64,000 bases of DNA. Source: Chiloscyllium plagiosum (lineage: Eukaryota). Location: assembly GCF_004010195.1 (NCBI RefSeq), contig NC_057749.1:3675595-3739594 (forward strand). Reading direction: 5' to 3'. Made by a program: the position numbers and the translations under genes. This document shows positions 1,177-59,883 of this stretch, piece after piece. Under the pieces are notes generated by a model, which searched no databases, was not told the DNA's origin, and saw only the letters and a list, made by a program, of their open reading frames with translations. Numbering within the stretch: the first letter of the stretch is position 1; every line of letters begins with the position of its first letter.

Positions 1177-1547
1177 CGAGTTTTGAGAAGATTTGTACCT
1201 CAGGTTGAAGTTCTGGATGTAGGTTTGCTCACTGAGCTGGAAGGTTCATTTTCAGACGTTTTGTCACCACATGAGGTAACCTCTTCAGTGAGCCTCCGGC
1301 CAAAGCACTGCTGATGTTTCCTGCTTTCTATTTATATGTTTGGGTTTCCTTGGGTTGGTGATGTCATTTCCTGTGTTGACATCATTTCCTCTGGTGACGC
1401 CATTTCCTGTTCTTTTTCTCAGGGGGTGGTAAATGGGATTCAAGTCAATGTGTTTGTTGATAGAGTTCTGGTTGGAACGCCATGCTTCCAGGAATTCTCG
1501 TGCATGTCCCTGTTTGGCTTGTCCTAGGATGGATGTGTTGTCCTAGT
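1177..1547 (-). mobile_element. Penelope-like element 3' fragment (same family as 3192-4020) with decayed hammerhead core
   Basis: Colinear with 3192-3495. The minus strand around 1250-1295 reads CTCA-CTGAAGA-G-GTTACC-TCATGT-GGTGAC-AAAA-CGTC-TGA. Confidence 0.7.
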
Positions 1548-1718
1548 CTCAGTGCTTGTGGTCAGACCTTGGTTTCGCAATTAACAAGGTTGCACCATGG
1601 AATGGGTGCAGTATGGTGCATTGAAGCTGTAATATTGGGAAAGACCTCATGAGAACTAAGCTGGAGGTATGGAGGCTGAAGAGAAAGGATGGCAGTATAA
1701 ATGTATTCTGGATGGGGA

Positions 1719-1813
1719 TATTCCTGAAGAAGGGCTTATGCCCGAAACATCGATTCTCCTGCTCCTTTGATGCTGCCTGACCTGCTGCGCTTTTCCAGCA
1801 ACACATTTTTCAG
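1719..1813 (+). mobile_element. short Penelope-like terminal fragment with hammerhead core
   Basis: CTGAAGA(1724-1730)-A-GGGC-TTAT-GCCC-GAAA-CATC-GATT, followed by the family's ctcctgctcc..gatgctgcctgacctgctg..ttttccagca segment, which is linked to a GIY-YIG body at 50262-51387. Confidence 0.75.
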
Positions 1814-1904
1814 CCCTTTTCTTCTGAGGCTATGTCCTGTGGTCCTAGACTGTCCCATGAGGAGAACATTCTCTCAGCATTTCCCCTGTCAAGCCCCTTA
1901 AGAA

Positions 1905-2590
1905 TCCAGAGGTCCAGGCTAATGCTTCACAGACATTGTTCCAATCGCAACGGTGGAATGTAAATCTGGAATTCAAAGCTGGCCTTGGTAATGGCAACCA
2001 TGAAATTGTCAGTAGTTGCCAAAAAGAACCCTGTCTGGTTCATTAATGCCTTTCAGGGAAAGAAATCCACCATCCTTACCTGGTCTGGCCTACCTGTGAC
2101 TCCAGACCCACAGCAATGTTGTTGAGTCATAACTGCACGCTGGAGAGGCAGTGACCTAGTGGTATTATCGCTGGACTGTTAATCCAGAAACCCAGGGAAT
2201 GTTCTGGGGACCTAACTTCGAATCCCGCCACGGGCAGATGGTGGAATTTGACTTTAATAACTATCTGGAATTAAAAATCTCATGATGACCATCCTCAATT
2301 CTCGGAAAAACCCATCTGGTTCACTAATATCTTTCATCATGAGCACTGTTCTGGCTTACATGTGACTCCAGACTCCCCAGCAATGTGGTTAACTCTTAAA
2401 TGCCCTCTGTGCAATTAGGGATGGGCAATAAATTCTGGCCTAGTCAGGGATGCTTGTCATTCTGTGAATGAATAAAGAAAATAAAAATTGGCCTAGCAAG
2501 CCTGATCCAGGTCAGAGGCAATTGTAGTGGTCAGCTGTACGACAAATATGGACCTTACCAGCAACTCTCACATCTCTTGAAAGAGTAACT
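1905..2590 (+). mobile_element. tRNA-derived SINE (second family) with a complete copy of the same family nested at about 2142-2487
   Basis: tRNA-like head ggcagtgacctagtggta..ttcgaatccc. The body tctggttcactaat..tgtgactccagacccacagcaatgtggtt occurs twice here and again at 34435-34745. A-rich end. Confidence 0.7.
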
Positions 2591-3191
2591 TAAAAAAAAA
2601 GAATGCAACTCTGGTGTGGGTTTCCAGTTAGATTGGAAAGATACTACTCCATTGGCAATGACTGTTGCACAAGCCTAGACACTGTATAATTGATGAGATG
2701 AGTAAGAGGTCTTCACTGCATTTTCAAATAGGGAATACCTAGCACTCTATCTGGAGAACATTCAAAATGTAATCATTGAATCACTTCCCCGCTGAGTTGC
2801 GCATCGACTGTAATTCTTGATTAATTACCAAGTAAATGAGATTTAATATCAGAAATGAAAATACAAAATGCTGGAAAATATTCCGCAGACCTGGCAGCTT
2901 CTGCTTAAAGAGAATGTTTCCTATTTAATTTTGGAGTTTTGAAGCCACAGTAAGATCAAGCTGTATGTGCTCAGTTGGAATTGTACCATAATCGATGTTG
3001 CCCTAAAGGTCCATGTTTAACAGCAGCCTGAGTGTGTCTCTTCATTTTGATTTCAATGAACTTTCAATCCGAGTGTAGATATTATGAAGCTATTGCAAAG
3101 CAAGAACAAGATGATTGAGACTTCATAATCACAAGATTGACATAAACTGTGTGGTTCAGGAAATCCTATCTATCCACTCATTCTCCAAAAT

Positions 3192-4020
3192 CAGGTTGTA
3201 GGTTTGCTCGCTGAGCTGCTGAGTTTGTTCTCAGATGTTGTGTCACCATGCTGGGTAACATCATCAGTGAGCCTCCACTGAGGCACTGGTGTTCTGTCCC
3301 ACTTGCTACTTATGTGTCTCGCTTTGTTGTGATGGATGATATCATTTCCGGTTCTGTTTCTGTGAGGTTGGTAAATGGGGTCCAAATCCATGTGTTTGTT
3401 AAAGGAGTTCTAGTTTGAATGCCAGGCCTCTAGGAATTCCTGCGTGTGTCTTTTTGTTTTAGCCTGTTCCAAGATGGATGCATTGTCCCAGTCGAACTGG
3501 TGTCCCTCTTCGTCTGTGTGTATGGATACCAGTGATAGTTGGTCACGTATTTTGGGTGGCTAGTTGGTGCTCATGTATCCTGGTGACTAGTTTCCTACCT
3601 GTCTGTGCATTGTAATATTTGTTGCAGTCCTTGCAGGGTACTTTGTACATAATGTTGTACGCATATGGATAAAGAGGGACACCAGTTCGACTGGGACAAT
3701 GCATGTGTCCTGGGACAGGCTAAACAAAGACACACACGGGAATTCCTAGAGGCCTGGTGTTTAAACCAGAACTCCATCAATAAACACATCGATTTGGACC
3801 CCATTTACCAACTTCTGAGAAAAAGAACCGGAAATGATATCACTCACCACAACAACCAAGACAGATAAATCGCAAATGGGACAGAACACCAGCACTTCAC
3901 CGGAAGCTCACTGATGATGTTACCTAGCATGGTGACAAAATGTCGGAAAGTAAAGACACCAGCTCAGTGAGCAAACTGTCAACCTGATCCATACCCTGAA
4001 CCAGAGATCTTCTCCAAAGT
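3192..4020. mobile_element. Penelope-like element, inverted (fold-back) arrangement with GIY-YIG C-terminal remnant
   Basis: 3192-3650 (-) and 3655-4020 (+) are diverged reverse complements. ORF 3665-3868 (GHQFDWDNACVLGQAKQRHTREFLEAW..NSINKHIDLDPIY) resembles the C-terminus of PLE GIY-YIG endonucleases. 15-bp TSD ctcattctcca(a/g)aat at 3177-3191 and 4021-4035. Confidence 0.8.
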
Positions 4021-4114
4021 CTCATTCTCCAGAATTTCTGGCTGTCATATTACAGCACCTTAACTGGCTTAATCAGCTCTACTATTGTTCCTTATCTTGC
4101 TGTGTTGTTGTATT

Positions 4115-4468
4115 GATAGGTTTATAGAATAATGAGGGGTATGTATAAGGTAAGTGGCAGGCGCCTTTTGCCAATATGGTGGGTTTCAAGACCACGGGGT
4201 ATATTTTTAAGGTGAGAAGAGGGAGATTTAGAAAAGACATGAGGGGCATTTTTTTTTACACAGAGGGTAGTTCATGTGTGCAATCAACTTCCAGAAGAAG
4301 TGGTGGACAAGGTTTAAAAGACATTTAGATAAGTACATGAACAGGAAATGTCTGGAGGGATATGGGCCAAGTGCAGGTAGGTGGGACTAGTTTAGTTTGG
4401 GATTGTGTTCAGCATGGACTGGTTGGACCAAGTGGTTTGTTTCCATGCTGTATGACTCTATGACTCCA
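4115..4468 (+). mobile_element. CR1/HER1 LINE 3' fragment
   Basis: Decayed RT C-terminus and 3' UTR ending ctgtatgactctatgactc; colinear with other copies in the window. Confidence 0.8.
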
Positions 4469-5130
4469 TTCCAGACCAGATAGGTAGTGTATCTAAAGGC
4501 ATTCGACTTGTGACATTCTGGCTTAAAAGTACCTGTCCTTTAACTTCAGTTACTCTCCTACTGCAATGGCCATCAATGTAGTGTGTTCATCAGTCAGTTA
4601 TGTGCCTGTAACAAACAGTACGTCAATATGCATAGAAAACCCAAACTATATATAGGCCTGGTGTAACAATGTGAATAGTTATGTTGTTAATAAACTTCAA
4701 GATATCTGATTCTGTAAATATCTGACCTTTGTGGTATGTGGACATGTGTGATTTGGATTGGGTACTGAATTAGCCCAAGTCGTGGTGTTTGATGTGAGAA
4801 ACCACTTCAATTCTGCTGCAAACGATTATGCCTGCATATAAAATCACCCTCTTGGTGTCTGTTTTCAACTAGCTTCTGCTCTGACCACTTGTTCTCCTGA
4901 CCTAGTTAATTTTTAGTTAGGGCTTTGTACCAATCTTACATTGTACTGAGTTAAATTGAAACCACATAGTGGTGTATAGTGTTTTGACCTGATTAACTTC
5001 ACATATTATGATAGACTGTCTCACACAACATGGATGCTGGGAAAAAATAGGCACAATAGTAGAGCTAGATTACGTCAGTTAGGTGGTAGTATGGGGGTAT
5101 TAAAAAAAAGAGAGAGAGAAAGAGGGATAA

Positions 5131-6476
5131 AAATGAATAGCAGTGTCAAACAGTCTGCTAAGAAAAATAAATTATGATAGACTGTCAAGTTTGGCAAATG
5201 TTGATCTATTTTGAGTCATCTTCTGGATTGCACAGTATGAACGACTGAACAAATGCTTGTCGGTAGGTAACTCCTTCACATCAAGTGTCCCTTTCTAGTT
5301 AATAATTAGGTGTGAAAGATCAGCCATCTATAGCATTGTTACCGTTGTATTTATGTAAATACAGTAAAAGGGTGCGTACATCCCTACAAGCCAGAGCCAT
5401 TTAATTACATAAATTATGAACAAAGAGACGATATAAAACAAAAGTCATTTTCTGGTCACCCAGTGGCTCTTTGGTTTTTATGAATTGGCTTCCTCAGAAG
5501 CTAACCTGAAGTAAGGACTGGATCCACAAAAAGGACAGCTGTTGAAGCCTCCGGCCACCACCTCAAGGACATCTGACCGGTTCCACTATGTCTCTGCCGC
5601 CAAAGTCCCCTCATCGTCGCCATGACGAACGAGAAGGACTCACCAAGTTGGCAATGTACAGCCACGAAGCCGGTGAAATTCTAGCTGCCGTCAAAGCCCA
5701 GAGACTGTCCAAACCCCTGCGGACTGGCCCATGTCCCAACTCCCTAGGGTCATAAATGAATAGCAGTGTCAAACAGTCTGCTAAGAAAAAAAAATTATGA
5801 TAGACTGTCAAGTTTGGCAAATGTTGATCTATTTTGAGTCATCTTCTGGATTGCACAGTATGAACGACTGAACAAATGCTTGTCGGTAGGTAACTCCTTC
5901 ACATCAAGTGTCCCTTTCTAGTTAATAATTAGAAAGGGACACTTGATGTGAAGGAGTTAACTACCGACAAGCATTTGTTCAGTCGTTCATACTGTGCAAT
6001 CCAGAAGATGACTCAAAATAGTTAATAATTAGGTGTGAAAGATCAGCCATCTATAGCATTGTTACCGTTGTATTTATGTAAATACAGTAAAAGGGTGCGT
6101 ACATCCCTACAAGCCAGAGCCATTTAATTACATAAATTATGAACAAAGAGACGATATAAAACAAAAGTCATTTTCTGGTCACCCCGTGGCTCTTTGGTTT
6201 TTATGAATTGGCTTCCTCAGAAGCTAACCTGAAGTAAGGACTGGATCCACAAAAAGGATAGCTGTTGAAGCCTCCGGCCACCACCTCAAGGACATCTGAC
6301 CGGTTCCACTATGTCTCTGCCGCCAAAGTCCCCTCATCGTCGCCATGACGAACGAGAAGGACTCACCAAGTTGGCAATGTACAGCCACGAAGCCGGTGAA
6401 ATTCTAGCTGCCGTCAAAGCCCAGAGACTGTCCAAACCCCTGCGGACTGGCCCATGTCCCAACTCCCTAGGGTCAT
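5131..6476. repeat. tandem duplication (5131-5753 / 5754-6476) with internal 92-bp inverted duplication
   Basis: Units are identical apart from about 3 differences. 5930-6021 is the reverse complement of 5829-5920 with one mismatch. Confidence 0.95.
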
Positions 6477-6904
6477 GAAGTCCAACCCACGACGCCATCA
6501 CTGAGGAAATCGCCAAATCCCCCACAGCCATGAAGAATGACCTGCTGTTTCATTCCCCTGCAACCCCGCTCCTCCACCTCGGCTGCAGAAAGAAGAAAAG
6601 ATGACTTTGATAAGAAAGGTAAAGTTAAATAGTAAAAGAAAAGGAAGGGTGTGGCCGGTTGGGTGAGAAGGATTGGACAAGCCAGGAGCCAGAACACAAT
6701 CTAACATGTTGCCTCCGCCATCTTGCTTGGGAATCTCTGGACCATGTCGTAATGGAGATTTTCCTATCAGGGGGCTGAGGCATACCCTCAATGTCTGTCC
6801 TTGTATTATGGGAGCACAGACTTGAAAAACAGTTGGATTACTGTTCCCAAAATCCTGACTGATCCACCCTTCGAACAAAGCTCGATCAAGTGGCAAACTT
6901 AAGG

Positions 6905-7653
6905 AGTCATAGAGATGTACAGCATGGAAACAGACCCTTCGGTCCAATCCGTCCATGCCAACCAGATATCCCAACCCAATCTAGTCCCACCTGCCAGCAC
7001 CCAGCCCATATCCCTCCAAACCCTTCCTATTCATATACCCAACCAAATGCCTCTTAAATGTTGCAATTGTACCAGCCCCCACCACTTCCTCTGGCAGCTC
7101 ATTCCATACACATACCATCCACTGTGTGAAAAGGTTGCCCCGTAGGTCTCTTTTGTATCTTTCCCCTCTCACCCTAAACCTATGCCCTCTAGTTCTGGAC
7201 TCCCCGACCCCCGGGAAAATACTTTGTCTATTTACCCTATCTATTGCCCTCTTAATTTTGTAAACCTCTGAGGTCACCCCTCAGCCTCTGACACTCCAGG
7301 GGAAAACAGCCCCAGCCTGTTCAGCCTCTCCCTGTAGCTCAGATCCTCCAACCCTGGCAACATCCTTGTAAATCTTTTCTGAACCCTTTCAAGTTTCACA
7401 ACATTTTTCCGGTAGGAAGGAGACCAGAATTGCACTCAATATTCCAACAGTGGCCTAACCAATATCCTGTAGAGCCGCAACATGACTCTGATCAATAAAG
7501 GAAAGCATATCAAACGCCTTCTTCACTATCCTATCTACCTGCGACTCCACTTTCAAGGAGCTATGAACCTGCACTCCCAGATCTTTGTTCAGCAACACTC
7601 CCCAGGACCTTACCATTAAGTATATACGTCTTGCTAAGATTTGCTATCCCAAA
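6905..7653 (-). mobile_element. CR1/HER1 LINE 3' fragment (RT C-terminus + 3' UTR)
   Basis: ORF 6981-7277 (EVYKI..IDRVNRQSIFP..SRTRGHRFRVRGERYKRDLRGNLFTQ..VWNELP) is the typical CR1 ORF2 C-terminus; tail ctctatgactc. Confidence 0.9.
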
Positions 7654-8780: not shown

Positions 8781-8884
8781 AATTCACTGTAAAGCTTTAT
8801 GTGAGGAGTGTAAAGGGAAAAAAATTGGTTTCTATTCCTTGCACACCATCCGCCAAAGATGTTGTACAGCTTTTTTTTTTAAGA

Positions 8885-12105: not shown

Positions 12106-12139
12106 TCAGAGGCTGTGGTTGGTGACCCTGGTTTATATG

Positions 12140-12224: not shown

Positions 12225-12760
12225 AGTAGTTCATTAGGAAACACTCATGCCTTTGAATCAGAAGATGCATATCCCATTCTATAGAGCTGAGCACATATTC
12301 TGAGCTGACTCTGCCCAGTGCAATGATGAGGAGTTGATGTACTGTTGAAGGTATTGTTTGGATGAGTTTTCATGCTAAGTTCCCATCACCCATCTTGGGT
12401 CACAGCTCCCATGGCATTGTTGAAATCGGTGCCTGGGGAGTCCTTCTCGCTGTTGTGGTCAATATTTGTCGCTTGATCAAACCTGGGCATTATCGCGATA
12501 TTAGGAGAAAGTGAGGATTGCAGATGTTGGAGATCAGAGTCGAGAGAGCGGCGCTGGAAAAGCACAGCAGGTCAGGCAGCATCCGAGGAGCATGACATTC
12601 GGGCATGTGCTCCTGCTCTTGAAGAGCTTATGCTGAAAAGGTCGACTCTCCTGCTCCTCGGATGCTGCCTGACCTGCTGTGCTTTTCCAGCACCGCACTC
12701 GTTATTACAGTATTGTCTTTAAGTGGACCAATGCATTTGCTACTTTGCAAGAGTGACTTT
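12225..12760 (+). mobile_element. ancient Deu-domain-like SINE, interrupted by 12504-12700
   Basis: Decayed motifs (cccatggcattgttgaa..ggggagtcc..ggtcaatattt) resembling the Deu-SINE core; related to 44590-44980. Confidence 0.45.
12504..12700. mobile_element. Penelope-like fold-back insertion (decayed)
   Basis: Inverted arms gctggaaaagcacagcaggtcaggcagcatccgaggagca / tgctcctcggatgctgcctgacctgctgtgcttttccagc, with the ggagaaagtgagg tail on the left arm only. Confidence 0.85.
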
Positions 12761-14149: not shown

Positions 14150-14316
14150 CCACCCCCACCCCATTTATCTCTCAGCCCCCCCTCCACAATCCTGATGAAG
14201 TTCTAATGCGCGAAACGTCGACTCTCCTGCTCCTCAGATGCTGCCTGACCGGCTGTGCTTTTCCAGCACCACACTTTTTGACTCTGATCTCCAGCATCTG
14301 CAGTCCTCACTTTCCT
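14150..14316 (+). mobile_element. Penelope-like 3' terminal fragment with hammerhead core
   Basis: CTGATGA 14192-14198 and GAAA-CGTC 14212-14219 (stem II decayed), then the family tail ending cctcactttcc. Confidence 0.8.
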
Positions 14317-16404: not shown

Positions 16405-16493
16405 TTTCAAAAAGTGTAGTGCTGGAGAAGCACGGCACAGTATCTGAGGAGCAGGAGAGTCGATGTTTCGAGCATGAACTCTTTATCAGGAAT
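16405..16493 (-). mobile_element. short Penelope-like terminal fragment, decayed hammerhead
   Basis: Minus strand reads TTC-CTGATAA-AGAGTTCATGCTC-GAAA-CATC-GACTC. Confidence 0.65.
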
Positions 16494-16799
16494 GACTCCA
16501 GCAAGTATGAATTCAATTTATCTTTGGAGGATAATCGTTGCAAATCTGGCGAATCTAATAACTTGTTTAGCCAATGTATTTAATTTTTGGTACAGGTTAC
16601 AAACTTGCGGGTGATAGTCGTCCATTTAGCATTCTGTAGGCTGTCAAACAATCTTTGATAAGTTGATACACAAAAGACAACTGAGCAATATTTTGACTTG
16701 ATAGATTGTCAGGACGATGAGAATCAAGACCTATTGGTGTAGATAGCAGTTGTAAATAATTGCATGGGTCCAATCAGCAGAGGAGTCCCTTAGGAATTG

Positions 16800-17004
16800 G
16801 TTGAAACTTTATTGCTGGAACAGCACAGCAGGTCAGGCAGCATCCAGGGAACAGGAGATTCGACGTTTCGGGCACAGGCCCTTCTTCAGGCCTGTGCCCG
16901 AAACGTCGAATCTCCTGTTCCCTGGATGCTGCCTGACCTGCTGTGCTGTTCCAGCAATAAAGTTTCAACTTTGATCTCCAGCATCTGCAGACCTCACTTT
17001 CTCC
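16800..17004. mobile_element. young Penelope-like fold-back insertion with perfect 81-bp inverted arms
   Basis: Arms 16800-16880 and 16889-16969, tail 16970-17004. TSD ccttaggaattggt at 16788-16801 and 17003-17016. Confidence 0.93.
16857..16890 (-). ncRNA. minimal type-I hammerhead ribozyme core (stem I disrupted)
   Basis: CUGAAGA-A-GGGC-CUGU-GCCC-GAAA-CG-UC-GAAUC. All core nucleotides are present, with palindromic ACGU. Confidence 0.7.
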
Positions 17005-17518
17005 TTAGGAATTGGTGTCAGTATTATCCTTCTTTACCTACCTCATCAGTAATCTCGATGTATGTGAAACATTATCTTCTACAGCCAGACGTCTACCTTG
17101 CTCCCTCATTGGGTAAGACATGAATCAGAGAATAGTTGCAATGCAAATGGAGGTCTTTTGGCCCACTGTGTCAGCATAGATCTCTAAATGAGCATCATGT
17201 GACTTGGCAACACTCTCTCCTGATCTTTCAGTGTAACCTTCCATGCCAGACCATGTGTGGAAGCCTCCTGAGCTGATCTACTGCAATATACTGTGATCTG
17301 TTTATCTAATTATAATAATTATCATTTTAACTTTTTTTTTCTAACTGATACTATGGATCACTGTAAGGTAATGTAACTTTTTTTCTTTTATTTCTCTATT
17401 TTGTATCTAAAATTTATGCCAAGGTATTTTGTACCTAAGATGGTGCCATGAAGAGTGACATTGTAAACTTTTCACTGTAGTTCTGTACTTGAGTACACAT
17501 GACAATAAACTTTAATCT

Positions 17519-27510: not shown

Positions 27511-28570
27511 GTATGTTGAACTCACAAATAGCTTTCTACCGAGAGTATGGTGCAATGCATGAGTATACTATGGACATTTCAGTTCTGTTGAGAAATAAGT
27601 GGGAAATACAGTTTCTGTAGTTAAAAGTAGTTGCCTATTAAGTAATGTTTAGTCGGTGTTCATGTTAATTTGTTACAGTGAAAACCTTAAAATGTGAAAT
27701 TTTGTGTGTGGCCTTTTGCTTTGGTCAGAAGAAAATTAATATTTAAACAACATTTTATTGGTCTCTCTGGGATTCATACCACCCACTGCTATCCTTTTTA
27801 AATTCCTTGTACCATTTGCGATAGAATCACTTACCTTCAAGCTATTCACAAGTGATCTCTTTTGTTCCGTTTCACCTTATCGCCTTCTTTGCTTCTGTAC
27901 TTGTTACATCTCTTTGCCTTCCAGTTCTGAATTGTTAACTCTGTATGCTTTTTTTTTGTATTTATTGATGTTATTTCATTAAAATTGCAATGAAGAAAAC
28001 GGAGTCTGCCTTAGAAGCACACATTAAAAACGGGAGCCCTGACAGGATTACCTGTCTGTATTGGATGTAGAGTTCTGTGCGTTTGACTGATCTTTGCATC
28101 TGAATTAGTAATATGTGGACTCTTGGCAATGAAAGACCACTTGGGAATGGCAAGAAAATCTGTTGTTCTATGCTAATTGTATGGGTTTTATCACCCTGTC
28201 CTAAATATTATATAACAACAAAAACAAACTGCAGATGCTGGAATCCAAAGTAGACAGGCAGGAGGCTGGAAGACCACACCAAGCCAGGTAGCATCAGGAG
28301 GGGAGAAGTCGACGTTTCGGCTTGCTGAATATTGCATGGCATCTTTGCGAGGGGGAGAGGGGGTGGTGCTAGTGGTGTGGTGAGTGTGAAGTCCTGATTT
28401 TCTTTTATATAGTGTGGGAATCCTGGTGTTTTGAGATATGTTCTTTATCTTGGCTTGTAGTTCTTGTGAAAAAACTTCAGAGATGTGGTGATGGTGCCCA
28501 AAAGAAAGGCAGACCAATGTCAGGATGCCATCAAATGTTTGCTAGTCAATGATGCATTTCAAGTGTAAAA

Positions 28571-28770
28571 GTTGAAAAGTGTGCTGCTGGAAAAACACAG
28601 CAGGCCAGGCAGCATCCGAGGAACAGGAGAATCGACGTTTCGGGCATAAGCCCTTCAGGAAACGAAACGTCGATCTCCTGCTCCTTGGATGCTGCCTGGC
28701 CTGCTGTGTTTTTCCAGCACCATACTTTTCAACTCTGGTCTCCAGCATCTGCAGTCCTCACTTTCTCCTT
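28571..28770. mobile_element. Penelope-like fold-back insertion
   Basis: Inverted arms start and end at gttgaaaag/cttttcaac, with the tail on the right arm. TSD tttcaagtgtaaaag at 28557-28571 and 28771-28785. Confidence 0.9.
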
Positions 28771-30990: not shown

Positions 30991-31318
30991 AAAAGATGAG
31001 GCAATAAATTATGTCTTGTGATAGCAGTAGGTACAATTATTATCACATGTTAGGCATATTTCCAACAATCAGAAGCCAGGTATGTCACATCTGTCTCCAT
31101 CAGGATCTTATGCAAGACTAATTTGTTTCCTAAGACTGTGTGCCGTCATTAGATTGGGTGGAGCTCGATACAGCTCAATATTAACTCTTGATTACCTTAT
31201 ATAATGTTGAGCAGTAAAATACTGCATGCTAAAAGTAAGACCTTCAGTATTTAGTGTCTTTGCAAATTTTGGAATGTTCCAAAGCAGTTTACAGCCAATG
31301 AAGGACTTTTTGAGATGT

Positions 31319-31417
31319 CAGAAATCAATGACACCGGGTTTTGTCCAACAGGTTGATTTGAAATCACTAGCTTTCGGAGCGCTGCTCCTTCATCAGGGGA
31401 AGTGGATGGAAGCGTAC
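31319..31417 (-). mobile_element. short Penelope-like insertion carrying a hammerhead core
   Basis: TSD ctttttgagatgt at 31306-31318 and 31418-31430. Confidence 0.75.
31362..31400 (-). ncRNA. minimal type-I hammerhead ribozyme
   Basis: UCCC-CUGAUGA-A-GGAGC-AGC-GCUCC-GAAA-GC-UA-GUGA. Intact core, 5-bp stem II, palindromic AGCU, stem I pairing at 3 of 4 positions. Confidence 0.72.
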
Positions 31418-34745: not shown

Positions 34746-34859
34746 CACAACAAATCTAACAGGAACTCTCAATATTTCCCTCCTTTCCCTTCTCCTACTA
34801 ATCCTTAAATATGAGTCTGACAGAATTCTCACTCTGATGTTTTTTTTTACCATCCCCAG

Positions 34860-35201
34860 GAGTCTTCAAGATCCAAGTACCCGAAGTCCCCGTGGTTGCC
34901 ATCTTTGGAAAAGACATCACCCTGAACTGTTCCTTCACCACCAATGCCACTTTCTCCCTGGGCGACCTCAGTGTCATTTGGCAGCTCACGGAAACTCGGA
35001 AGATGGTGCACAAGTACCCGCACCAGCCGGACCAACAGGCAGACAACTTTGTGAACAGGACAGCACTGTTCACCGAGGAGCTGGAAAAGGGCAATGCTTC
35101 TTTACTGTTGAGGCATGTCCGGATTGAGGATGAGGGCAGCTTCACCTGCTTTGTGAGAATTAAAAGCCACCAGAGTGCTTCCATCATGCTCCGATTGGCG
35201 G
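34860..35201 (+). CDS. CD276: CD276 (B7-H3) IgV-domain exon, phase 1-1, 342 nt
   Basis: Acceptor ttttttttaccatccccag|GA and donor GCG G|gtacga. Translation is (G)VFKIQVPEVPVVAIFGKDITLNCSFTTNATFSLGDLSVIWQLTETRKMVHKYPHQPDQQADNFVNRTALFTEELEKGNASLLLRHVRIEDEGSFTCFVRIKSHQSASIMLRLA. This matches the B7-H3 IgV signature I recognise (human VQVPEDPVVALVG..LIWQLTDTKQLVH..NRTALF..GNASLRL..DEGSFTCFVSI), with canonical Ig Cys/Trp/Cys. Confidence 0.96.
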
Positions 35202-35334
35202 GTACGAGAATGTGACATTGTGCCCACAGCAATGGGTTGACCTACATCGGCTCCCAGTGTGATATTACCACCACTGAAGCATATCCTCCCCACTTTTTGT
35301 GCAGTTAATTCCCTCATGACAAATGATAGCATCT

Positions 35335-36882: not shown

Positions 36883-37066
36883 ACACGTAGTTAGTAAAAT
36901 TGAGATAAGGAATGAAATGAACATAAGATGGTGTTGATTGGACTGGTCAGGACCTGGAGAAATCCTAATGGCCAAATGGCTGCAGAGAAGTCGTGAAGTA
37001 CTTTTGGAATGAAACGTGTTGGACTGGTTGAGAGTATTTGCCTTACTTATACTTCTGTTGTTTCAG

Positions 37067-37363
37067 CTTCTTACTCCAAACCCAGTCTGCACTTGGAACC
37101 CAACAAGAATCTCAAGCCTGGTGATGAGGTAGCCATTGCTTGCCACTCTTCTGGCGGTTACCCCCAAGCTACGGTGCAATGGCACGATGGGAAAGGGAGC
37201 AACATCACCGAGAATGTCACCACTTCGCAGGTAGCCAATGAGGAGGGCCTATTTGACGTCCGCAGTGTGATCCGGGTGATACTGGAGCCCAACAGCACGT
37301 ACAGTTGCCTGGTGAGGAACGAGCTGCTGAACGAGGAGACCCAAGCCTTGGCAACCATTACAG
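37067..37363 (+). CDS. CD276: CD276 (B7-H3) IgC-domain exon, phase 1-1, 297 nt
   Basis: Acceptor acttctgttgtttcag|CT and donor ACA G|gtcagt; splices in frame with the IgV exon (G+CT=Ala). Translation [99 protein letters not shown] matches B7-H3 IgC (human [44 protein letters not shown]). Confidence 0.96.
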
Positions 37364-37863
37364 GTCAGTTGCACATTGCTGTAGCCAACTTGGCGATCTG
37401 AGGTCTGCAAAATATAATAGGACATTGTAACAGCACAACTTTCACAGCATCCATTCCAATTACTGTGAGCTGCCTCAAAGGAGTTCTGAAGTGTTTGCAA
37501 CATCTGTTCATCCATTCTGCTCTGCAGTGAACCAGCTGAAAATCACTCAACATCACAATAGGATATCGGCAAAACATGTTTAGAAATTTTGATGGGCAAT
37601 TTTGTTTTCTTTTTAGAAGGGAGAGTGCGGGAAAATGCGCTGTTTCCAATTTTGTAACCATTTAAACCCATTACAAGTGTGGTAAATGATGGTAGTGTGG
37701 CAGAAGCCTTGCAGTATCTCTTCAAATGTTTTCATTTATAGCTGGTTACAACTTTTTTTTTAGACTCTTGTGAAGGCTAACATGGTAGATCTTCCGTAAA
37801 GGAGCTGGGTATATTTACTGTAGATCAGGTAAGTGAGGAGGAACTGTTTCCACTGGCAGACAA

Positions 37864-41789: not shown

Positions 41790-43040
41790 AGTTAAAATCT
41801 TCTACCATAACCACAGTATTATTCTTACAGATAACTGAGATCTCCTAATAAATTTGTTTCTCCATTTCCAGCTGACTACTGAGAGGTCTATAGTACAGTT
41901 CCCATAAGGTGATCATCCCTTTCTTGTTTCTCAGTTCCACCAATGAAGTTTCCTGGACATATTCTCAGAACAGGAGAAAGTGAGGACTGCAAATGCTGGA
42001 GTACCAGAGTTGAAAAATGTGGTGCTGAAAAAACACAGCAGGCCAGGCAGCATCCGAGGAGCGGGAGAATTGACGTTTTGGGCATAAGCCCTTCATCACC
42101 GATTTTTTGATTTTTTACCTGAAGAAGGACTTATGCCCGAAACGTCGATTCTCCTGCTCCTTGGATGCTGCCTGGCCTGCTGTGTTTTTCCAGCACCACA
42201 TTTTTCAACTCTCATAATCTCAGAACATCTTCCCTAAGTACAGCTGTAATGTTATTGCTAATCAAAAATGCCACTCCCCCTCCTCTCTCGTCCCCTTTCT
42301 ATCCTTCCTGTAGCATTTGTATCCTGGAATATTAAGCTGCCAGTCCCCTGTTTTTTAACCATGCCATGAGTTCATCTGCCTTTCCTGCTGGGCCTATTGC
42401 GTTGAAATAAATGCAGTTTCATTTATCAGTCCTGCCTCGTTCTCTGCTTTGTTCCTGCCTGCCCTGACTATTTGACTTGCTCCTTTTCCCAACTGTACCA
42501 GTCTCTGACTGATCTCTTTCCTCACTATCTTCCTGGGTCCCCCTGCCCCCACCTTACTCGTTTAAATCCTCCCAAACAGCTCTAGCAAATCTCCCTGCCA
42601 GCATATTAAGCCCCTTCCAATTCAGGTGCAATCTGTCCTCCTTATACAGGTCACTTCTCTTCCAATTCAGGTGCAATCTGTCCTCCTTATACAGGTCACT
42701 TCTAACCCAGAAGAGATTCCAATGATCCAAAAATGTGAATCCTTCTCCCCTGCATCAGCTCCTCAGCCACATATTCATCTGCTCTATCCTTCTATTGTTA
42801 CCCACACTGGATTATAATAATCCAGATTACTACCCTTGAGGACCTCCATTTTAAAGTCCTGCCTAACTTCCTATATTCTCCTTGTTTTCTCTTCCTGTGT
42901 CATTATTTCCAATGTGTACAAAGACCACTTGCTGGTCCCGCTCCCTTTCAAGAACATTCTGCACCCTCTCTGAGATTTCTTTGATTCTGATACCAATGAG
43001 GCAATTCTGATGTCTCTCTGTCGGCTTCAGAAATGTCTGA
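41790..43040 (-). mobile_element. CR1 LINE internal fragment: ORF1 SGNH esterase remnant and start of ORF2 AP endonuclease
   Basis: ORF 42863-43060 contains VVFVHIGNNDTG (GxND block of the CR1 ORF1 esterase). Minus 42240-42340 reads LNIPGYKCYRKDR..RGGGVAFLI (APE). Contains a 45-bp tandem duplication at 42614-42703. Confidence 0.75.
41973..42212. mobile_element. Penelope-like fold-back insertion with two back-to-back hammerhead cores
   Basis: TSD cata(t/a)tctcagaaca at 41958-41972 and 42213-42227. The + core is CTGAAGA(42119-42125)-A-GGAC-TTAT-GCCC-GAAA-CGTC-GATT. Confidence 0.9.
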
Positions 43041-43544: not shown

Positions 43545-43940
43545 TGTCGTGATTACAATGAGGTCAGCCAACTGGACGTCATACAATATGAGTTCCCTGA
43601 TTGGGGCTGCTAATCTGGTCCAATCAGGGAGCCCTAGCTGACATAAAAAGATTGTGTTAAAGTTTCGGGTCAAGTGACCCTTCCTCAGGTGTTCGGAGGA
43701 AGGGTCACTTGATCCGAAATGTTATCTCTGATGTCTCTCCACAGATGCGGACCTGCTGAGCTTTTCCAGCAATTTCCGTTTTGTTCTGATTTCCAGCATC
43801 TTTTAAAAAGGTTGGGTTGTTCGGGATACTGCCACTCTGGTGCCTGCCTGTAGATGAGGCAGTACCCTAGTCAGGGACTGTCCTGGTGTAAATAAGGGGT
43901 GATCTTGTGACAGGATTTCTGTCTCTGCGGAGTTTTTTCT
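43545..43940 (+). mobile_element. probable solo LTR, interrupted by a Penelope-like insertion
   Basis: Begins TG; flanked by 5-bp direct repeat gatcc (43540-43544, 43941-43945). Contains an inverted CCAAT pair, TATA-like ataaaaag and AATAAA-like taaataag. Ends in CT rather than CA. Confidence 0.5.
43659..43803. mobile_element. Penelope-like fold-back insertion with paired hammerhead cores (GGGTC/GACCC family)
   Basis: Minus core CTGAGGA-A-GGGTC-ACTT-GACCC-GAAA (43663-43688); plus core CGGAGGA-A-GGGTC-ACTT-GATCC-GAAA. TSD taaaaag(a/g)ttg(t/g)gtt at 43644-43658 and 43804-43818. Confidence 0.8.
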
Positions 43941-43962: not shown

Positions 43963-44125
43963 GGGAGAAAGTGAGGTCTGCAGATGCTGGAGATCAGAGT
44001 TGAGAGTGTGGTGCTGGAAAAGCACAGCAGGTCAGGCAGCATCCGAGGAGCAGGGGAATCGACGTTTCAGGCATAAGCCCTTCATCACCGATTTGTTTTA
44101 AATTTTTTTGTATTTTTTTTTAAAC
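43963..44125 (-). mobile_element. Penelope-like terminal fragment
   Basis: Family tail, plus the core GTGATGA-A-GGGC-TTAT-GCCT-GAAA-CGTC-GATT preceded by an A-rich leader. Confidence 0.85.
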
Positions 44126-44323: not shown

Positions 44324-44450
44324 GGAGAAAGTGAGGTCTGCAGATGCTGGAGATCAAAGTTGAAACTTTATTGCTGGAACAGCACAGCAGGTCAGGCAGC
44401 ATCAGGATGCTGCCTGACCTGCTGTGCTGTTCCAGCAATAAAGTTTCAAC
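44324..44450. mobile_element. young Penelope-like fold-back insertion with perfect 45-bp arms
   Basis: Arms 44359-44403 and 44406-44450, tail 44324-44358. TSD cccattccttccca at 44310-44323 and 44450-44463. Confidence 0.93.
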
Positions 44451-50255: not shown

Positions 50256-50261
50256 AGACAA

Positions 50262-51743
50262 GGAGGAAGTGTGGACTGCAGAATCGAAAAATGTGGTGCT
50301 AGAAAAGCACAGCAGATCAGGCAGCCTCCAAGGAGTAGGGGAGTTAACGTTTCGGACATAAGCCCTTCATCAGGAATTATGGCGGGGAGGGCAATGGATA
50401 TTGGGTCGGGGGGGGGAAGGCAGCTGAGAGATATATAGGAGGGTGGGATTGGGGCTGGGGCAAAGATAGCTGGGCAGGAGATAGGTAGATGCAGGTGGGG
50501 ATTGATGGTGATAGGTTGATTGGAAGGGTGCAGCGGAGAGGTAGGAAGGAAGACAGACAGGTAGGACAGTTCAAGAGGGTGGTGCCAAGTTGGACAGTTG
50601 AATCTGGAATGAGGTGATGGGGAGGGGAGATTTGGAAACTAGTGAAGTCAATGTGGTTGGAAGGTTCCAAGGCGGAAGGTGAGGTGTTCTTCCTCCGGTC
50701 GTCAGGTGGCTTGGATTTGGCAGTGGAGGAGGCTCAGGACTTGTATGTCCTTGGTGGTGTGGGAGGGGGAGTTGAAGTGATCGGCCACAGGGCAGTTTGG
50801 TGCATGTGTCCCAGAGATGTTACCTAACACGTTCCGCGAGTTGGCATCCTGTTCCCAAATATAGAGACCACAGCGGGAGCAACGGACACAGTAGATGAGG
50901 TGGGTGGATGTGCAGGAAATTCTCTGCTGGATGTGGAAGGATCCTTTGGTGCCTTGTACAGAGGTGAGGGGGGAGGTCAGGGCACAGGTTTTACACATCT
51001 TGCAGTGGCAAGGGAAGGCGTCAGGTGTGGAGGGTGGGGAGTTAGGACCTAATGTGGGAATCATGGAGGGAATGCTGATAAGAGTGGGGAGGGGAATATG
51101 TCTCTGGTGGTGGAGGGGTCTGACTGTAGGTGGCGGAAATGGCAGAGGATAATGCACTATCTCCGGAAATTAGTAGGGTGGAAGGTGAGGCCCAGGGGAG
51201 TTCTATCCTTGTTGTGGTTGGAGGGGTGGGTTCAAGGACAGAGGTGAAGGAAGTGGACGAGATCCACTGAAGGACATTGTTGGATCAAGTGGGAGGGGAT
51301 TTTGTGGTCCTTGAAATAGGAAGCCATCTGGGATGTCCTGGAGTGGGATTGCTCCTCCTGGGAGCAGATGCGGTGGAATTGGGAGTAAGGTATCCTTTCT
51401 TTCAATTCCTTCCTCCTGGTTCTTTGCTTCCACCAAAGACATGCAAGTCCTGGGTCTTCTCCACTGCTAAATCCAAGCCGCCTACGACTGGAGGAAGAAT
51501 GCCTTATCTTCAACCAAATGGCATCAACACCAACTTCAACAGTTTCCAAATCCCTCCTCCCACCTCATTCCAGATCCAACGCTCCAACTCGGCACCGCCT
51601 TCTTGACCTGTCCCACCTGTCCATCTTTCTTCCCACCTATCTGCTCCAACCTCCCGACCAACCCATCATCATCACACCCCACCTGCATCTATCTATTGCC
51701 TTCCCAGGTACCTTCCCTGCCCACCCTCCACCCTCCTATCTAT
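50262..51743 (-). mobile_element. Penelope-like element (GIY-YIG endonuclease remnant, hammerhead-bearing 3' terminus) with inverted segment at about 51425-51743
   Basis: Minus translation IPYSQFHRICSQEE and CHCKMCKTC..THLIYCVRCSRCGLYI..PVADHFNSPSH. Core CTGATGA-A-GGGC-TTAT-GTCC-GAAA-CGTT at 50346-50373. 51425-51743 mirrors about 50430-50770. Confidence 0.88.
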
Positions 51744-52565
51744 NNNNNNNNNNNNNNNNNNNNNNNNNNNNNNNNNNNNNNNNNNNNNNNNNNNNNNNNN
51801 NNNNNNNNNNNNNNNNNNNNNNNNNNNNNNNNNNNNNNNNNNNNNNNNNNNNNNNNNNNNNNNNNNNNNNNNNNNNNNNNNNNNNNNNNNNNNNNNNNNN
51901 NNNNNNNNNNNNNNNNNNNNNNNNNNNNNNNNNNNNNNNNNNNNNNNNNNNNNNNNNNNNNNNNNNNNNNNNNNNNNNNNNNNNNNNNNNNNNNNNNNNN
52001 NNNNNNNNNNNNNNNNNNNNNNNNNNNNNNNNNNNNNNNNNNNNNNNNNNNNNNNNNNNNNNNNNNNNNNNNNNNNNNNNNNNNNNNNNNNNNNNNNNNN
52101 NNNNNNNNNNNNNNNNNNNNNNNNNNNNNNNNNNNNNNNNNNNNNNNNNNNNNNNNNNNNNNNNNNNNNNNNNNNNNNNNNNNNNNNNNNNNNNNNNNNN
52201 NNNNNNNNNNNNNNNNNNNNNNNNNNNNNNNNNNNNNNNNNNNNNNNNNNNNNNNNNNNNNNNNNNNNNNNNNNNNNNNNNNNNNNNNNNNNNNNNNNNN
52301 NNNNNNNNNNNNNNNNNNNNNNNNNNNNNNNNNNNNNNNNNNNNNNNNNNNNNNNNNNNNNNNNNNNNNNNNNNNNNNNNNNNNNNNNNNNNNNNNNNNN
52401 NNNNNNNNNNNNNNNNNNNNNNNNNNNNNNNNNNNNNNNNNNNNNNNNNNNNNNNNNNNNNNNNNNNNNNNNNNNNNNNNNNNNNNNNNNNNNNNNNNNN
52501 NNNNNNNNNNNNNNNNNNNNNNNNNNNNNNNNNNNNNNNNNNNNNNNNNNNNNNNNNNNNNNNNN

Positions 52566-53012
52566 GAAATGAGGAAACTGGTGAAATCTGAGTTCATCCC
52601 TTGTGGTTGGAGGGTTCCTAGGCGGAAGATGAGGCGTTCTTCCTCCAACCGTCGTGTTGCTATAGTCTGGCGTTGGAGGAGTCCAAGGACCTGCATGTCC
52701 TTGGTGGAGTGGGAGGGGGAGTTGAAGTGTTGAGCCACGGGGTGGTTGGGTTGGTTGGTCCGGGTGTCCCAGAGGTGTTCTCTGAAACGTTCCGCAAGTA
52801 GGCGGCCTGTCTCCCCAATATAGAGGAGGCCACATCGAGTGCAGCGGATGCAGTGAATGATGTGTGTGGAGGTGCAGGTGAATTTGTGGCGGATATGGAA
52901 GGATCCCTTGGGGCCTTGGAGGGAGGTAAGGGGGGAGGTGTGGGCACAAGTTTTGCATTGCAGCGGATGCAGTAAATGATGTGTGTGGAGGTGCAGGTGC
53001 AGCGGATGCAGT
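52566..53012 (-). mobile_element. Penelope-like GIY-YIG endonuclease fragment, frame intact for about 130 codons
   Basis: Hand translation from 52960: QCKTCAHTSPLTSLQGPKGSFHIRHKFTCTSTHIIHCIRCTRCGLLYIGETGRLLAERFREHLWDTRTNQPNHPVAQHFNSPSHSTKDMQVLGLLQRQTIATRRLEEERLIFRLGTLQPQGMNSDF. It contains the YIGET motif, the conserved Arg, and CCHH residues. Confidence 0.9.
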
Positions 53013-53511
53013 GGTTATCAGACCAGCCATGATTTCATTGACTGGCAGAATAAAGTTGATGGGCTGAAAGGCCTACTTCTTGTCTTGAGGTTTATTATGT
53101 TCCAGACGTTGAATAGGAAGGGAATAGTGTTTGGACTCTGTTGACTTTGTAGACACGGGTAGAAATCTTCTAAGGAAGAAGACACCAAATTTTAATGAAC
53201 ACACTGAGCAACATTAGTTTTTGTACGTTCATTAATGTCATCGCGTTAATGGGATTTTCACATCGCCATTTACTCCTAGTCAGCATGAAAATCTTCCCAT
53301 TGGGCTCTCTATTCAAGCAGTTCTGATTATCTTCCCCAAGATTCAATTAAGGTAATGATGATGAAGGATTTACTGGAGGAAATGATAAAATCTTTATTTG
53401 AATGTGACCTCTTTTCCCATCTTCAGGCTTTACCTTGGCGCCTCAATCAGCGAATTCTAGAATTTCACAGCAATGAAGGAGCCTAAGAAGAAGGGTATTG
53501 GACTTGAATAA

Positions 53512-53612
53512 TTTCTGAAGAAGGGTTATTGGACCTGAAATGGTCACTCTGCTTTCTCGCCACAGATGCTGCTAGTTTTGCTGAGTTTTTCCAACAGTTT
53601 CTGTTTTTGCTT
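53512..53612 (+). mobile_element. short Penelope-like terminus with decayed hammerhead
   Basis: CTGAAGA-A-GGGTT-ATTG-GACCT-GAAA-TGGTC, followed by the acagatgctg..ttttcca..ttctgttttt tail. Confidence 0.65.
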
Positions 53613-53616
53613 CACT

Positions 53617-54600
53617 CAGATGATCCCTGGTATGGACGGATTGTCTTCATGAGCAAAGGTTAAATGTGGGTTCCCTCCGGGTGCTCCAGTTTCCTCCCAC
53701 AGTCCAAAGATGTGCAGGTTAGGTGGATTGGCCAGGCTAAAATGCCCATAATATCTAGGGGTGTGCAGGCTTGGTGAATTAGAATTAAAATTAGAATTCT
53801 TACAGTGTGGAAACAGGCCCTTTGGCCTAACAAGTCCACACCGATCCTCCGAAGAGTAACCTACCCAGACCCATTCCATTACCCTATATTTACCCCTGAC
53901 TAATGCACCCAACCTACACATCCCAGAACACTATTGGCAATTTAGCATGGCTAATTCACCTAACATGCACATCCTTTGGATTGTGGGAGGAAACTGGAGC
54001 ACCCGGAGAAAACCTACGCAGACACGGGGAGAATTCCGGTTGCCCGAGGCTGGAATTGAATCCGGGTCTCTGGCACTGTGAGGTAGCAGTGCTAACCACT
54101 GAGCCACTGTGCCGCCCAAAAAGCCATGGGAAATGCAGGGTTAGGGTGGGGTGGGTAGGCCTGGCTGGGAGGCTCTTCGGAGTGTCAGTGTGGACTTGAT
54201 GGGCTGAATGGCCTGCTTCCAAACTGTCGGGCTTCTATGATTCAATGATAAACAGGTTGGGACTTTACTCATTGTAATTTAAAAGAATGAATGAAAATCA
54301 ATTGAAACATATTGGCTGCTTAAGGGGCTTGACAGGTAAATGCTGAGAGGATGTTTCCCCCTCATGGGAGAGTCTGAGACCATAGTCTCAGAATACACGG
54401 GCACTGACTTAAGACAACGATATGGAGGAATTTCTTCTCTCAGGATTGAGAGTCTGAGGAATGCCTTGCTATAGAGAGTTGTGCTACAGAGTTCTTGTGA
54501 ATATTTAAGGCTGAGATTGATTGTTGACCAGTAGGGGAGTCGGGGTTATGAGGAAGGGACAGGAAAGTGCGTGTGAGGCATTCGTGGTCAATAAAATAGT
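53617..54600. mobile_element. triple nest: CR1 fragment (+) > HE1 SINE (+, 53665-54245) > antisense HE1 SINE (53778-54117)
   Basis: Each host resumes colinearly after the inner insert. Confidence 0.85.
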
Positions 54601-57304: not shown

Positions 57305-57790
57305 GGGCATCATGCTGGTTCAGTGGTTAGCACTGCGGCCTCAGGGACGCAGGTTTGATTCCCGCCTCGGGCGACTGTCTGTGTGGAGTTTGCACATTCT
57401 CCATGTGTCTGCGTGAGTTTCCTCCGGGTGCTCAGGTTTCCTCCCACAGTCCAAAGACATGCAGGTTAAATGGATTGTCAATGTCAAATTGCCCCAAAGT
57501 GTCTAGAGATGTGCAGGTGGGTTAGCCATGGGAAATGCAGGATTAGATTAGATTAGATTACTTACTGTGTGGAAACAGGCCCTTCGGCCCAACAAGTCCA
57601 CATTGACCTGCTGAAGCGCAACCCACCCAGACCCATTTCCCTACACCTAACACTACAGGCACTTTAGCATGGCCAATTCACCTAACCTGCACATTTTTAG
57701 ACTGTGGGAGGAAACCGGATAGAGCGTGGATCTGGGTGAGGTGGTTGGGCTGAATGGCTTGCTTCCACTCTGTCGGGATTCTATGATTCT
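57305..57790. mobile_element. HE1 SINE (+) with antisense truncated HE1 SINE (57542-57718) nested in it
   Basis: The (GATTA)4 antisense tail begins right after host gggaaatgcag; host 3' end resumes at 57719. Confidence 0.85.
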
Positions 57791-58356
57791 CCCTTGCTAG
57801 CAGCTCTGTGGGTGCAGCTGCACCACTCAGAATGCAGTCATCCAAGAAAGCAGCTCACCTCCAACTTATTGAGGATGCCAACATCTGAAAGTCAAATTAG
57901 AAGATCTGTAAATGATAAAATGTGCAGAATCACTGGCAGGAGGCAGGAGATTGGCACACGGAGCATTGTTCACTCGGAGAGCTGGTGCAGATATGCCTTC
58001 CTTCTGCAGTGCATCGATTCTGTGATTTGTTTTTGTGTGAAAATAATTAATCAGTGCTTATAGGGACCCTCTACTGAAACCACCAACAGCAACTTCTGCT
58101 GAACTCCTGCACTGGAGAATCCATTCCCTCCATCAAAAGCAGGGTGAAACGAGGGAATATGGCCTGACATCAAGGGCTAAGCTGATGAGGGGTGATGTCA
58201 GGAAGCTTATCAACAGACAGAGGTTGATGGGAATCTGGAACTTTCTGGCTTCTCAAAATGCTGCTGAGGTGTCAATTGAAAATCTTCAACTTCTGATGGA
58301 GTTTTTGTTTGTCATGGGGATTATCCAACTAAGATATCTGGTGTTTTAAAAGGGAT

Positions 58357-58790
58357 TAGAGTCCTAGAGCCCTACAGCACAGAGAAAGGGCCTTCAGCCT
58401 AAACTAGTCCATGCTGACCAAAATGTCCAACACGCTAACCCCATTTCCCTGGTCTTGGCCCATATCCTTCTAAACTTTTCCTATCCATGTATTTGTCCAA
58501 ATGCCTTTGAAGTGTTGTTAATGTACCATTTTCACTGGCAGCTCATTCCATATGCGTACCGCCCTCTTGTGTAAAAATGCTGCCCTTCAGGTTCCCTTTT
58601 ATTCTTTCCCCCTCACCTTTAACTGATGCTCTCTAGTCCTCAATTCCCCAACCTTGGGGGAAAAAGACTAAAGTGCATTCACCCTACATGCCTCTCATGA
58701 TCTTCTACACTTCTATAAGATCCCCACTCAGTCTCCTATGCTCTAAAGAAAAAAGTCCTAGCTTGTCCAACCTTTCCCTATGACTCAGAT
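58357..58790 (-). mobile_element. CR1/HER1 LINE 3' fragment
   Basis: Colinear with 6905-7345. Confidence 0.8.
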
Positions 58791-58794
58791 TATA

Positions 58795-58972
58795 TCATGG
58801 GATGTGGGTGTCATTGATGAGGCCAGAATTTGTGGCCCATCCCTAATTGCCCCTTGAACTGAGTGTTTTGCTTGACCATTTCAGCGGGAGGTTGAGAGTC
58901 AACCACGTTTCTACAAGTCAGTAATTATGTGTAGGCCAGGCCATGTAAGGAAGGGAGATTTCCCTCCCTAAG
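58795..58972 (-). mobile_element. tRNA-derived SINE (second family) 3' part
   Basis: Reverse complement of the gcaattagggatggg..ctggcc tail. Confidence 0.65.
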
Positions 58973-59214
58973 TGGATGGAGATCTGTCATGACTTAATTG
59001 AATGGCAGCACTGGCGAAAGGGCCAAATGGCCTATCCCTAATCCTGTTCACTTTCATAGTTACATTTAACAATGACTATGACTCTGTGTGAATCTGTGAA
59101 CAGAATGCCAACAATGCAGTCTTGTATTGGAATCAAATGCTGTGGGAACCATATTAAGACTTGTGTACAAGTTGAATGTTGAAAAGGAGAGGCGAATGGA
59201 CTTGCATCATGATG

Positions 59215-59442
59215 GTGGCTGTGTGGAATGCTCTGCCCCAGAGGGCAGTGGAGGCCCAGTCTCTGGATTCATTTAAGAAAGAGTTGGATAGAGCTCTCAA
59301 AGAAAGTGGAATCAAGGGTTATGGAGATAAGGCAGGAACAGGATACTGATTAGGAATGATCAGCCATGATCATGTTGAATGGCGGTGCAGGCTCGAAGGG
59401 CAGAATGGCCTACTCCTGCACCTATTGTCTATTGTCTATTGT
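59215..59442 (+). mobile_element. young CR1 LINE 3' end
   Basis: Near-identical to 63477-63660; (CTATTGT)n tail. Confidence 0.88.
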
Positions 59443-59684
59443 TCAGATATTTGCTTAACAGGCAGAAAAATCACAGGGCCAGCTGATGTGGAAAAAAAGT
59501 TAAAGAACTCAGCTGTTTCTCATACCAAATTTTAACTAAGATACCTGAAGGATTAACTATGGAAACGCCTTGCAGAGGAAGAAAGAAACCAGAGAGGAGA
59601 GATTAGAATTAGGTTTTATTGCCACATGTACTCAAGTACAGCAGTACAGTTACATGCAATGCTATCTTAGGTATAAAGTAAAAA

Positions 59685-59883
59685 TCGAAACTGTGGAAGC
59701 TATAAATCAGAAACAGAAATTGCTGGAAAAGCTCAGCAGGGTCTGGCAGCATCTGTGCAGAGTAATCTGAGATAATGAGTTGAGTGACCCTTCCTCAGAA
59801 TTGATGGGAGCTAGGAAAAAAGTTCAGAGAAGGGTTGCTGTGTAGGTTTAGGACTCACTTTCAGCAATTTCTGGTTTTGTTCG
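59685..59883. mobile_element. decayed Penelope-like fold-back insertion
   Basis: Arms cagaaattgctg / cagcaatttctg; minus-strand remnant CTGAGGA-A-GGGTC-ACTC. Confidence 0.6.

Follow-up and report, generated by a model that had tools for sequence, protein, structure and literature searches.

Minimal hammerhead ribozymes occur in the pseudo-long terminal repeats (pseudo-LTRs) of Penelope-like elements (PLEs) in fish, coelacanth, frog, and reptile, where they show low activity as dimers and are described, in the accessible text of the same paper, as dimer-dependent (Cervera and De la Pena 2014, PMC4209133). In the available part of a later study, what these hammerheads do is described as still unclear (Craig et al. 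2021, PMC8557442). A literature search, with subscription papers and supplements outside its reach, found no report of a cap signature in PLEs. It likewise found nothing on Penelope-like hammerheads in sharks or Chiloscyllium, or on their orientation in introns; subscription papers and supplements may hold shark families. The present analysis deals with 64,000 nucleotides (nt) of Chiloscyllium plagiosum (contig NC_057749.1, positions 3,675,595 to 3,739,594, forward strand), hereafter the window, which lies within the gene CD276 and in which a first-pass annotation had listed 17 hammerhead-like sites. The reading that is very probably correct is that these sites derive from the pseudo-LTRs of four or more PLE families, whose ends they represent, present at background density, probably inert, and likely produced by the copying of uncut RNA.

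By their layout, the intronic ribozyme-like motifs are genuine minimal type I hammerheads. All 17 sites were read out, and the core is recognizable at 16 of them, with zero or one mismatch in CUGANGA, one extra nt, a paired stem II, and zero to two mismatches in the GAAA box. The last site, previously placed at 59785, sits at 59798 on the minus strand and has no GAAA box, and the 5'-truncated copy at 28657 carries three mismatches in CUGANGA. Both boxes, a full stem II, the palindrome, and UH are found together at three sites (16889, 31396, and 50373), all on the minus strand. Exact-box cores with a stem II of at least 3 base pairs (bp) number six in the window, against a mean of 1.15 (maximum 3) in 20 Markov shuffles, and in a 1.61 Mb sample of the same genome strict motifs number 77, compared with 0 and 1 in its two shuffles. 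Of 123 descriptor matches, 116 have the extra nt between positions 9 and 10.1 and 77 have a loopless palindromic stem III followed by UH, most of the rest being CpG-decayed forms. The Rfam models miss these motifs, giving no hammerhead family in the window at E up to 10.

Four families (A, A2, B, and C) were recovered, as many as had been claimed at minimum. CUGANGA and GAAA around a paired stem II are intact in the family consensus and decayed in most single copies. Stem II keeps its pairing despite differing sequence, as previously described (4 bp in A; 5 bp in A2, whose tail is related to that of A; 5 bp in B; 6 bp in C), and the loopless stem III is indeed palindromic, with ACGU in A, A2, and C, and AGCU in B. 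Stem I, which had gone unmentioned, is present with 3-4 bp and shows covariation, both from family to family and inside C; in the latter, 35 of 36 copies are paired at the third position, among them G-C in 18, U-A in 10, and C-G in 6, these counts stemming from a few master elements and not from independent events. Each stub consists of a type I core and then a tail with two alternative end points, some 35 nt from each other. A single family A 30-mer occurs 31,927 times as an exact match in 3.56 Gb, equally on both strands. A TATAAA-type box was also observed upstream of the core, at about 40 nt in B and about 48 nt in C (loci L115, L123, and other long copies); with this motif reading, which is our assumption, the spacing would put starts 10-20 nt before the ribozyme.

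The link to PLE bodies, claimed earlier for the core at 50346-50373, holds by tblastn, with a family A GIY-YIG endonuclease at 50642-51402 directly upstream of the 50373 core, though Pfam GIY-YIG scores stay below cut-off (17.9 vs 22.6 bits, frame 52565-53014). The body at 50293..51402 gives tblastn matches of 58% and 51% to P0121 and 34% to P0125, which bears a reverse transcriptase (RT), and shows a CxxC linker in frame 50705-51169; the homologues P0125-P0127, P0133, and P0134 carry the RT domain PF00078. Family C is linked to endonuclease remnants at 1354-1599, 3269-3692, and 3653-3865, and family B to an endonuclease at locus L115, again by tblastn. Linker cysteines (CX2-5CxxC) are visible in A and partly in B, which from this linker would both belong to the Neptune-type clade, and we take C to belong to the Penelope/Poseidon clade. 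Shared sequence downstream of the tail (the start of a full-length open reading frame) was sought among 162 family A ends, and none was found beyond host repeats. Given the linked GIY-YIG bodies and a layout that matches the class described in the accessible text of PMC4209133, the earlier assignment to PLE pseudo-LTRs is upheld, and the motifs are, from their sequence, new shark members of this known class of minimal hammerheads.

The 5' ends of family A were mapped on the 220 of 311 tail rows that passed filters for identity, coverage, and flank. Anchored on the tail, 108 of these 220 ends fall at -12..+2 from C3, with a peak at -5..-3, while 10 fall at -200..-13, 22 are longer, and a single one lies at the cleavage site. 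Start density drops about 50-fold beyond -12, and the start of the family is the A four nt before the core. Among purine-flanked starts, 261 sit at the cleavage site and 155 at each of two neighbouring positions, and 12 of 30 inspected are point mutants; no real peak was found there. The 3' ends form two groups (49 of 129 at +86..97 and 56 of 129 at +122..128), which, near +90 and +125, match the 30-40-bp PLE tail (PMC8557442) and the anole priming sites (PMC11167929) as presented in the available parts of these two papers. An inverted arm lies upstream of 124 of the 220 copies (pairs count twice), and more than half of the family A copies belong to head-to-head pairs bounded by a single target duplication of 10-15 bp. 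Since such a pair typically comprises one long and one short arm within the duplication (16790-17012, 28570-28746, 41997-42210, 44343-44444), each represents a single insertion, probably primed on both strands.

At the 5' junction, the base before the start A, where it is not the element's own C, is G in at least 2,993 of 5,176 copies genome-wide. In the first 100 copies listed, G occupies this place in 68, against 14 one place 3' and 19 one place 5', the G tallies at junctions having been made by eye. The 5' wall of family A and the extra G likely mark a capped transcript start and an uncut template, the cap reading resting on DNA junctions. The G pattern fits a cap-derived C on the complementary DNA that would choose its partner, junction microhomology being a live rival. 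The context upstream of the start A appears initiator-like. In a single-cell polyA run of the same species label, a library type that cannot show 5' ends, 2,119 reads match the family A unit in both directions with no pile of starts or ends, and a second run has no reads on the unit.

These stubs could arise as follows. In family A at least, transcription from the element promoter would begin at the first nucleotide of stem I and give a capped RNA. By analogy with what the anole PLE does in vitro, the RT-endonuclease would nick both target strands and prime at two internal tail sites, after which the RT would copy 95-130 nt to the uncut 5' end and add the cap-derived G; read-through RNA would account for the long copies. 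The ribozyme may be kept by selection on master elements and would likely cleave only as a dimer and with the protein of the element, inserted copies decaying neutrally. On balance, it seems somewhat probable that the genome holds a fossil map of 5' ends in tens of thousands of stubs, in which the capped start falls exactly at the first base of the hammerhead, uncut RNA was copied on both target strands with priming at two internal sites, and the ribozyme serves as a protein-gated self-decapping or unit-length switch and not as a template maker. The junction statistics lend genomic backing to the in vitro result that the template is uncut RNA, and they yield a precise predicted transcript start.

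The effect on the host gene was assessed by orientation and integrity. The protein closest to the immunoglobulin (Ig) exons of the window among named ones is CD276 of a Chiloscyllium bamboo shark. As its signal exon lies 27 kb before the window and its transmembrane exon 77 kb after it, the whole 64-kb window is inside the CD276 pre-mRNA and the sites are intronic, so that the six listed plus-strand cores (1724, 3911, 14192, 42119, 43694, and 53515) are sense. The first-pass annotation had named the last three as sense and mutated; none of them is intact, and its list was short by the first three. In the window, 0 of 6 sense and 3 of 11 antisense sites are fully intact, a difference within chance (about 0.24, by hand). 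The larger test used about 1.53 Mb oriented by gene strand, comprising 13 genes or gene stretches (the CD276, CUB-domain, and spectrin-repeat exon runs each being taken as a single gene) after exclusion of 75 kb of unknown strand, and copies were located by their tails, independently of the ribozyme, the arms of a pair counting twice. The 403 copies divide into 190 sense and 213 antisense (p 0.27), with 67 vs 87 for unpaired copies (p 0.13). Core-covering copies retain every catalytic position in 59 of 103 sense and 59 of 109 antisense cases (p 0.68; odds ratio 1.14, 0.66-1.95). Mutations of G12, which lies in a CpG, were seen in 15 of 62 sense and 13 of 60 antisense copies, while the other ten core positions are mutated in 17 of 620 and 18 of 589 cases, respectively (below 4%). 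Decay is CpG-driven and the same in both orientations.

Sense bias or better integrity of sense copies, as would characterize a domesticated intronic hammerhead, was absent from the oriented 1.53 Mb, and copy density in CD276 equals the genome background. Since sense copies show no depletion and no higher rate of breakage, the suggestion that cores were disabled by mutation for the sake of the host comes down to plain CpG decay. The stubs in the CD276 introns are probably inert and harmless to the gene; a CD276-specific role is not supported, and any special relation to this gene falls away. More generally, the host seems to bear little cost from thousands of minimal hammerheads lying in sense orientation within introns, which fits a weak, protein-assisted activity.

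Several results weigh against this reading of inert stubs copied from uncut RNA. The 5' wall is broader in family B (32 of 75 at -20..+2) and missing in family C, where 9 of 44 copies start within -60..+35; no upstream body or endonuclease link was seen in the 11 family A2 copies examined; and G preceded only 7 of 19 copies starting at the same A in an older mixed sample. In the orientation test, the integrity interval permits up to about one-third lower odds in sense copies, unpaired family C copies lean antisense (5 vs 15, p 0.04, one of nine uncorrected tests), unpaired family B copies are intact in 4 of 10 sense and 7 of 8 antisense cases (p 0.07), pairs contribute two counts, and the family A set includes some contaminating A2 tails. 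A further challenge concerns the junctions, where the wall and the G could reflect junction chemistry, either microhomology between inverted arms or an endonuclease preference for GAT/ATT, with the true start elsewhere. The anole protein does prefer cutting at ATT, according to the available part of PMC11167929, and among 30 inspected G-junctions (two loci of which are duplicates) the G is within the arm or target duplication in 18: 10 of the 19 inverted junctions can take it from the inverted arm, and 8 of the 11 non-inverted ones share it with the target duplication. Nevertheless, the G is in neither arm nor target in the other 9 inverted junctions, GAT is not evidently favoured, by eye, in the target duplications of unselected copies, and chemistry of this kind sits poorly with the steep fall in start density beyond -12, which leaves this explanation unlikely.

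The two other alternatives are less probable still. Very high copy number and near-unit length could point to a self-propagating SINE-like (short interspersed element-like) or retrozyme-like family that carries its own internal promoter and multiplies by way of cleaved or circular RNA, and Drosophila Penelope has an internal promoter (PMC2377424, in its available part). However, flanks vary from copy to copy, long copies run into the endonuclease, both ends match PLE run-off products with no excess at the cleavage site, and the anole element RNA needed for insertion reaches past the priming sites in the accessible account of PMC11167929, a part that the stubs would lack. Same-strand tandem ribozymes flanking a non-coding unit, the mark of a retrozyme, were absent from the window, whose copies are solo or head-to-head with unrelated flanks. 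Such a family is thus quite improbable. Lowest of all stands the idea that sense cores, pairing within the CD276 pre-mRNA or in trans, cleave it and either regulate the gene or have been selectively inactivated, which we would regard as highly improbable. In its favour, the window's only intact cores are antisense, the two small unpaired subsets lean the same way, and partners exist in principle, 13 of 19 covered sense cores in a 209 kb CD276 sample keeping all catalytic bases. Against it stand the absence of strand or integrity bias among the 403 copies, the lack of part of stem I or the position within long fold-backs of most copies, a modelled dimer fold that would lie 5-14 kcal/mol above the minimum-energy fold (a rough gap, as tertiary contacts are ignored), and the anole PLE ribozyme, which cleaved only with its protein in the available text of PMC11167929. 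The dimer complementation envisaged by the first-pass annotation is likewise unlikely within this pre-mRNA, because the best sense family A cores, 14192 and 42119, are 28 kb apart with one stem II mismatch each and 42119 is tied up in pairing with its own inverted arm, as a 100-bp fold-back.

Table 1. Features of the window, with positions counted from its first letter
Feature	Position	Strand	Details
Family C PLE end	1214..1599	-	endonuclease remnant, core 1288-1255 (G12 mutated), tail
Family A stub	1720..1815	+	starts at A four nt before core; core 1724-1751, palindrome broken; sense
Family C PLE end	3176..3692	-	GIY-YIG remnant, decayed core 3267-3234; head-to-head with 3911 copy
Family C PLE end	3653..3988	+	decayed core 3911-3944; sense
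Family A head-to-head pair	12524..12699	both	truncated cores; absent from the first-pass list
Family A copy	14184..14297	+	core 14192-14219 with both catalytic boxes intact and one mismatch in stem II; sense
Family A copy	16420..16495	-	core 16489-16462, G8 mutated, tail partly deleted
Family A fold-back insertion	16790..17012	both	near-perfect; ~12-bp target duplication
Family A head-to-head pair	28570..28746	both	both cores 5'-truncated; 15-bp target duplication
Family B stub	31310..31406	-	intact core 31396-31368 (AGCU palindrome); 13-bp target duplication
CD276 IgV exon	34853..35206	+	tblastn 96% to named CD276; Pfam V-set
CD276 IgC exon	37060..37368	+	98% to named CD276
Family A head-to-head pair	41997..42210	both	cores 42099 (-) and 42119 (+)
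Family A2 head-to-head pair	43660..43790	both	cores 43688 (-) and 43694 (+), both decayed
Family A stub	43983..44088	-	truncated at C3
Fold-back of two family A tails	44343..44444	both	coreless; 14-bp target duplication
Long family A copy	50293..51402	-	frameshifted RT C-terminus, GIY-YIG endonuclease, 3' untranslated region, intact core 50373-50346, tail
Family A endonuclease remnant	52565..53014	-	second such remnant; runs into N stretch
Family A2 copy	53515..53620	+	palindrome and UH broken; sense
Family A2 copy	59720..59798	-	CUGAGGA at 59798, GAAA box deleted

Some of these features call for further description (Table 1). The fold-back at 16790..17012 contains the intact minus-strand core 16889-16862, with the 5' strand of stem I missing, and the 100-nt arms of the pair at 41997..42210 are 90% complementary, within a 10-14-bp target duplication. 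Five fold-backs (16790-17012, 28570-28746, 41997-42210, 12524-12699, and 9849-9964) would form long double-stranded RNA hairpins in the CD276 pre-mRNA, as possible editing substrates. An Rfam mir-15 match at 44364-44445 on both strands (57.6 vs a gathering threshold of 57.3 bits) was rejected as false, being the fold-back of two family A tails, and in sharks such PLE fold-back stubs will be mistaken for microRNAs. The long family A copy is surrounded by inverted arms at 50463-50616 and 51561-51714, beside the second endonuclease remnant, a nested or tandem-inverted arrangement of PLE sequence that extends into an N stretch; the window contains four N stretches in all (1,798 bases, unread). The coding exons of CD276, in a single IgV-IgC form, span about 237 kb (contig 3648002-3884814), with an intron of 104 kb between the IgC and transmembrane exons. 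The window also contains a tandem array of 49-bp period at 60022-61203, a near-identical duplication at 5197-6318, whose copies are spaced by 723 bp and agree at 99% over 300 nt and which has inverted arms at 5820-6030, and many copies of other abundant shark repeats (11797-11997, 26620-27400, 53625-54250, and 57338-57790), which we take to be ends of SINEs and long interspersed elements (LINEs) of HE1/HER1 type.

Compared with the metazoan PLE minimal hammerheads, as far as the accessible text of PMC4209133 describes them, the shark copies share the type I topology without loop III, the palindromic 15.2-16.2, the extra nt between 9 and 10.1, the G10.1-C11.1 pair, and the occurrence of several families per genome, mostly as solo copies, with opposite-strand pairs. 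They differ in a copy number far above the 4,000-9,000 given there for coelacanth and Xenopus, and in their stem II of 4-6 bp and stem I of 3-4 bp; 5' ends were mapped and intron orientation was tested here but not in the available part of that paper, which names no shark host. The Poseidon element PAc of Anolis carolinensis (Frangieh et al. 2024, PMC11167929, in its accessible part) similarly has two 3' ends about 35 nt apart in the tail, priming of both strands, uncut RNA as the main template, and no ends at the cleavage site. Its evidence comes from in vitro assays and RNA-seq, whereas that from the shark is genomic and adds the 5' wall with an extra G, and the shark set includes families with a Neptune-type CxxC linker, from which their clade would follow. 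Endonuclease-bearing (EN+) PLE insertions, in the accessible portion of PMC8557442, show the same strong 5' truncation, adjacent inverted truncated copy, and 30-40-bp tail at one end, but their truncation is variable, unlike that of family A, which falls at one position. A 5' junction G is also found in full-length LINE-1, where the available text of PMC11702581 attributes it to the mRNA cap, whereas in the shark it marks 95-130-nt stubs that would have been primed internally.

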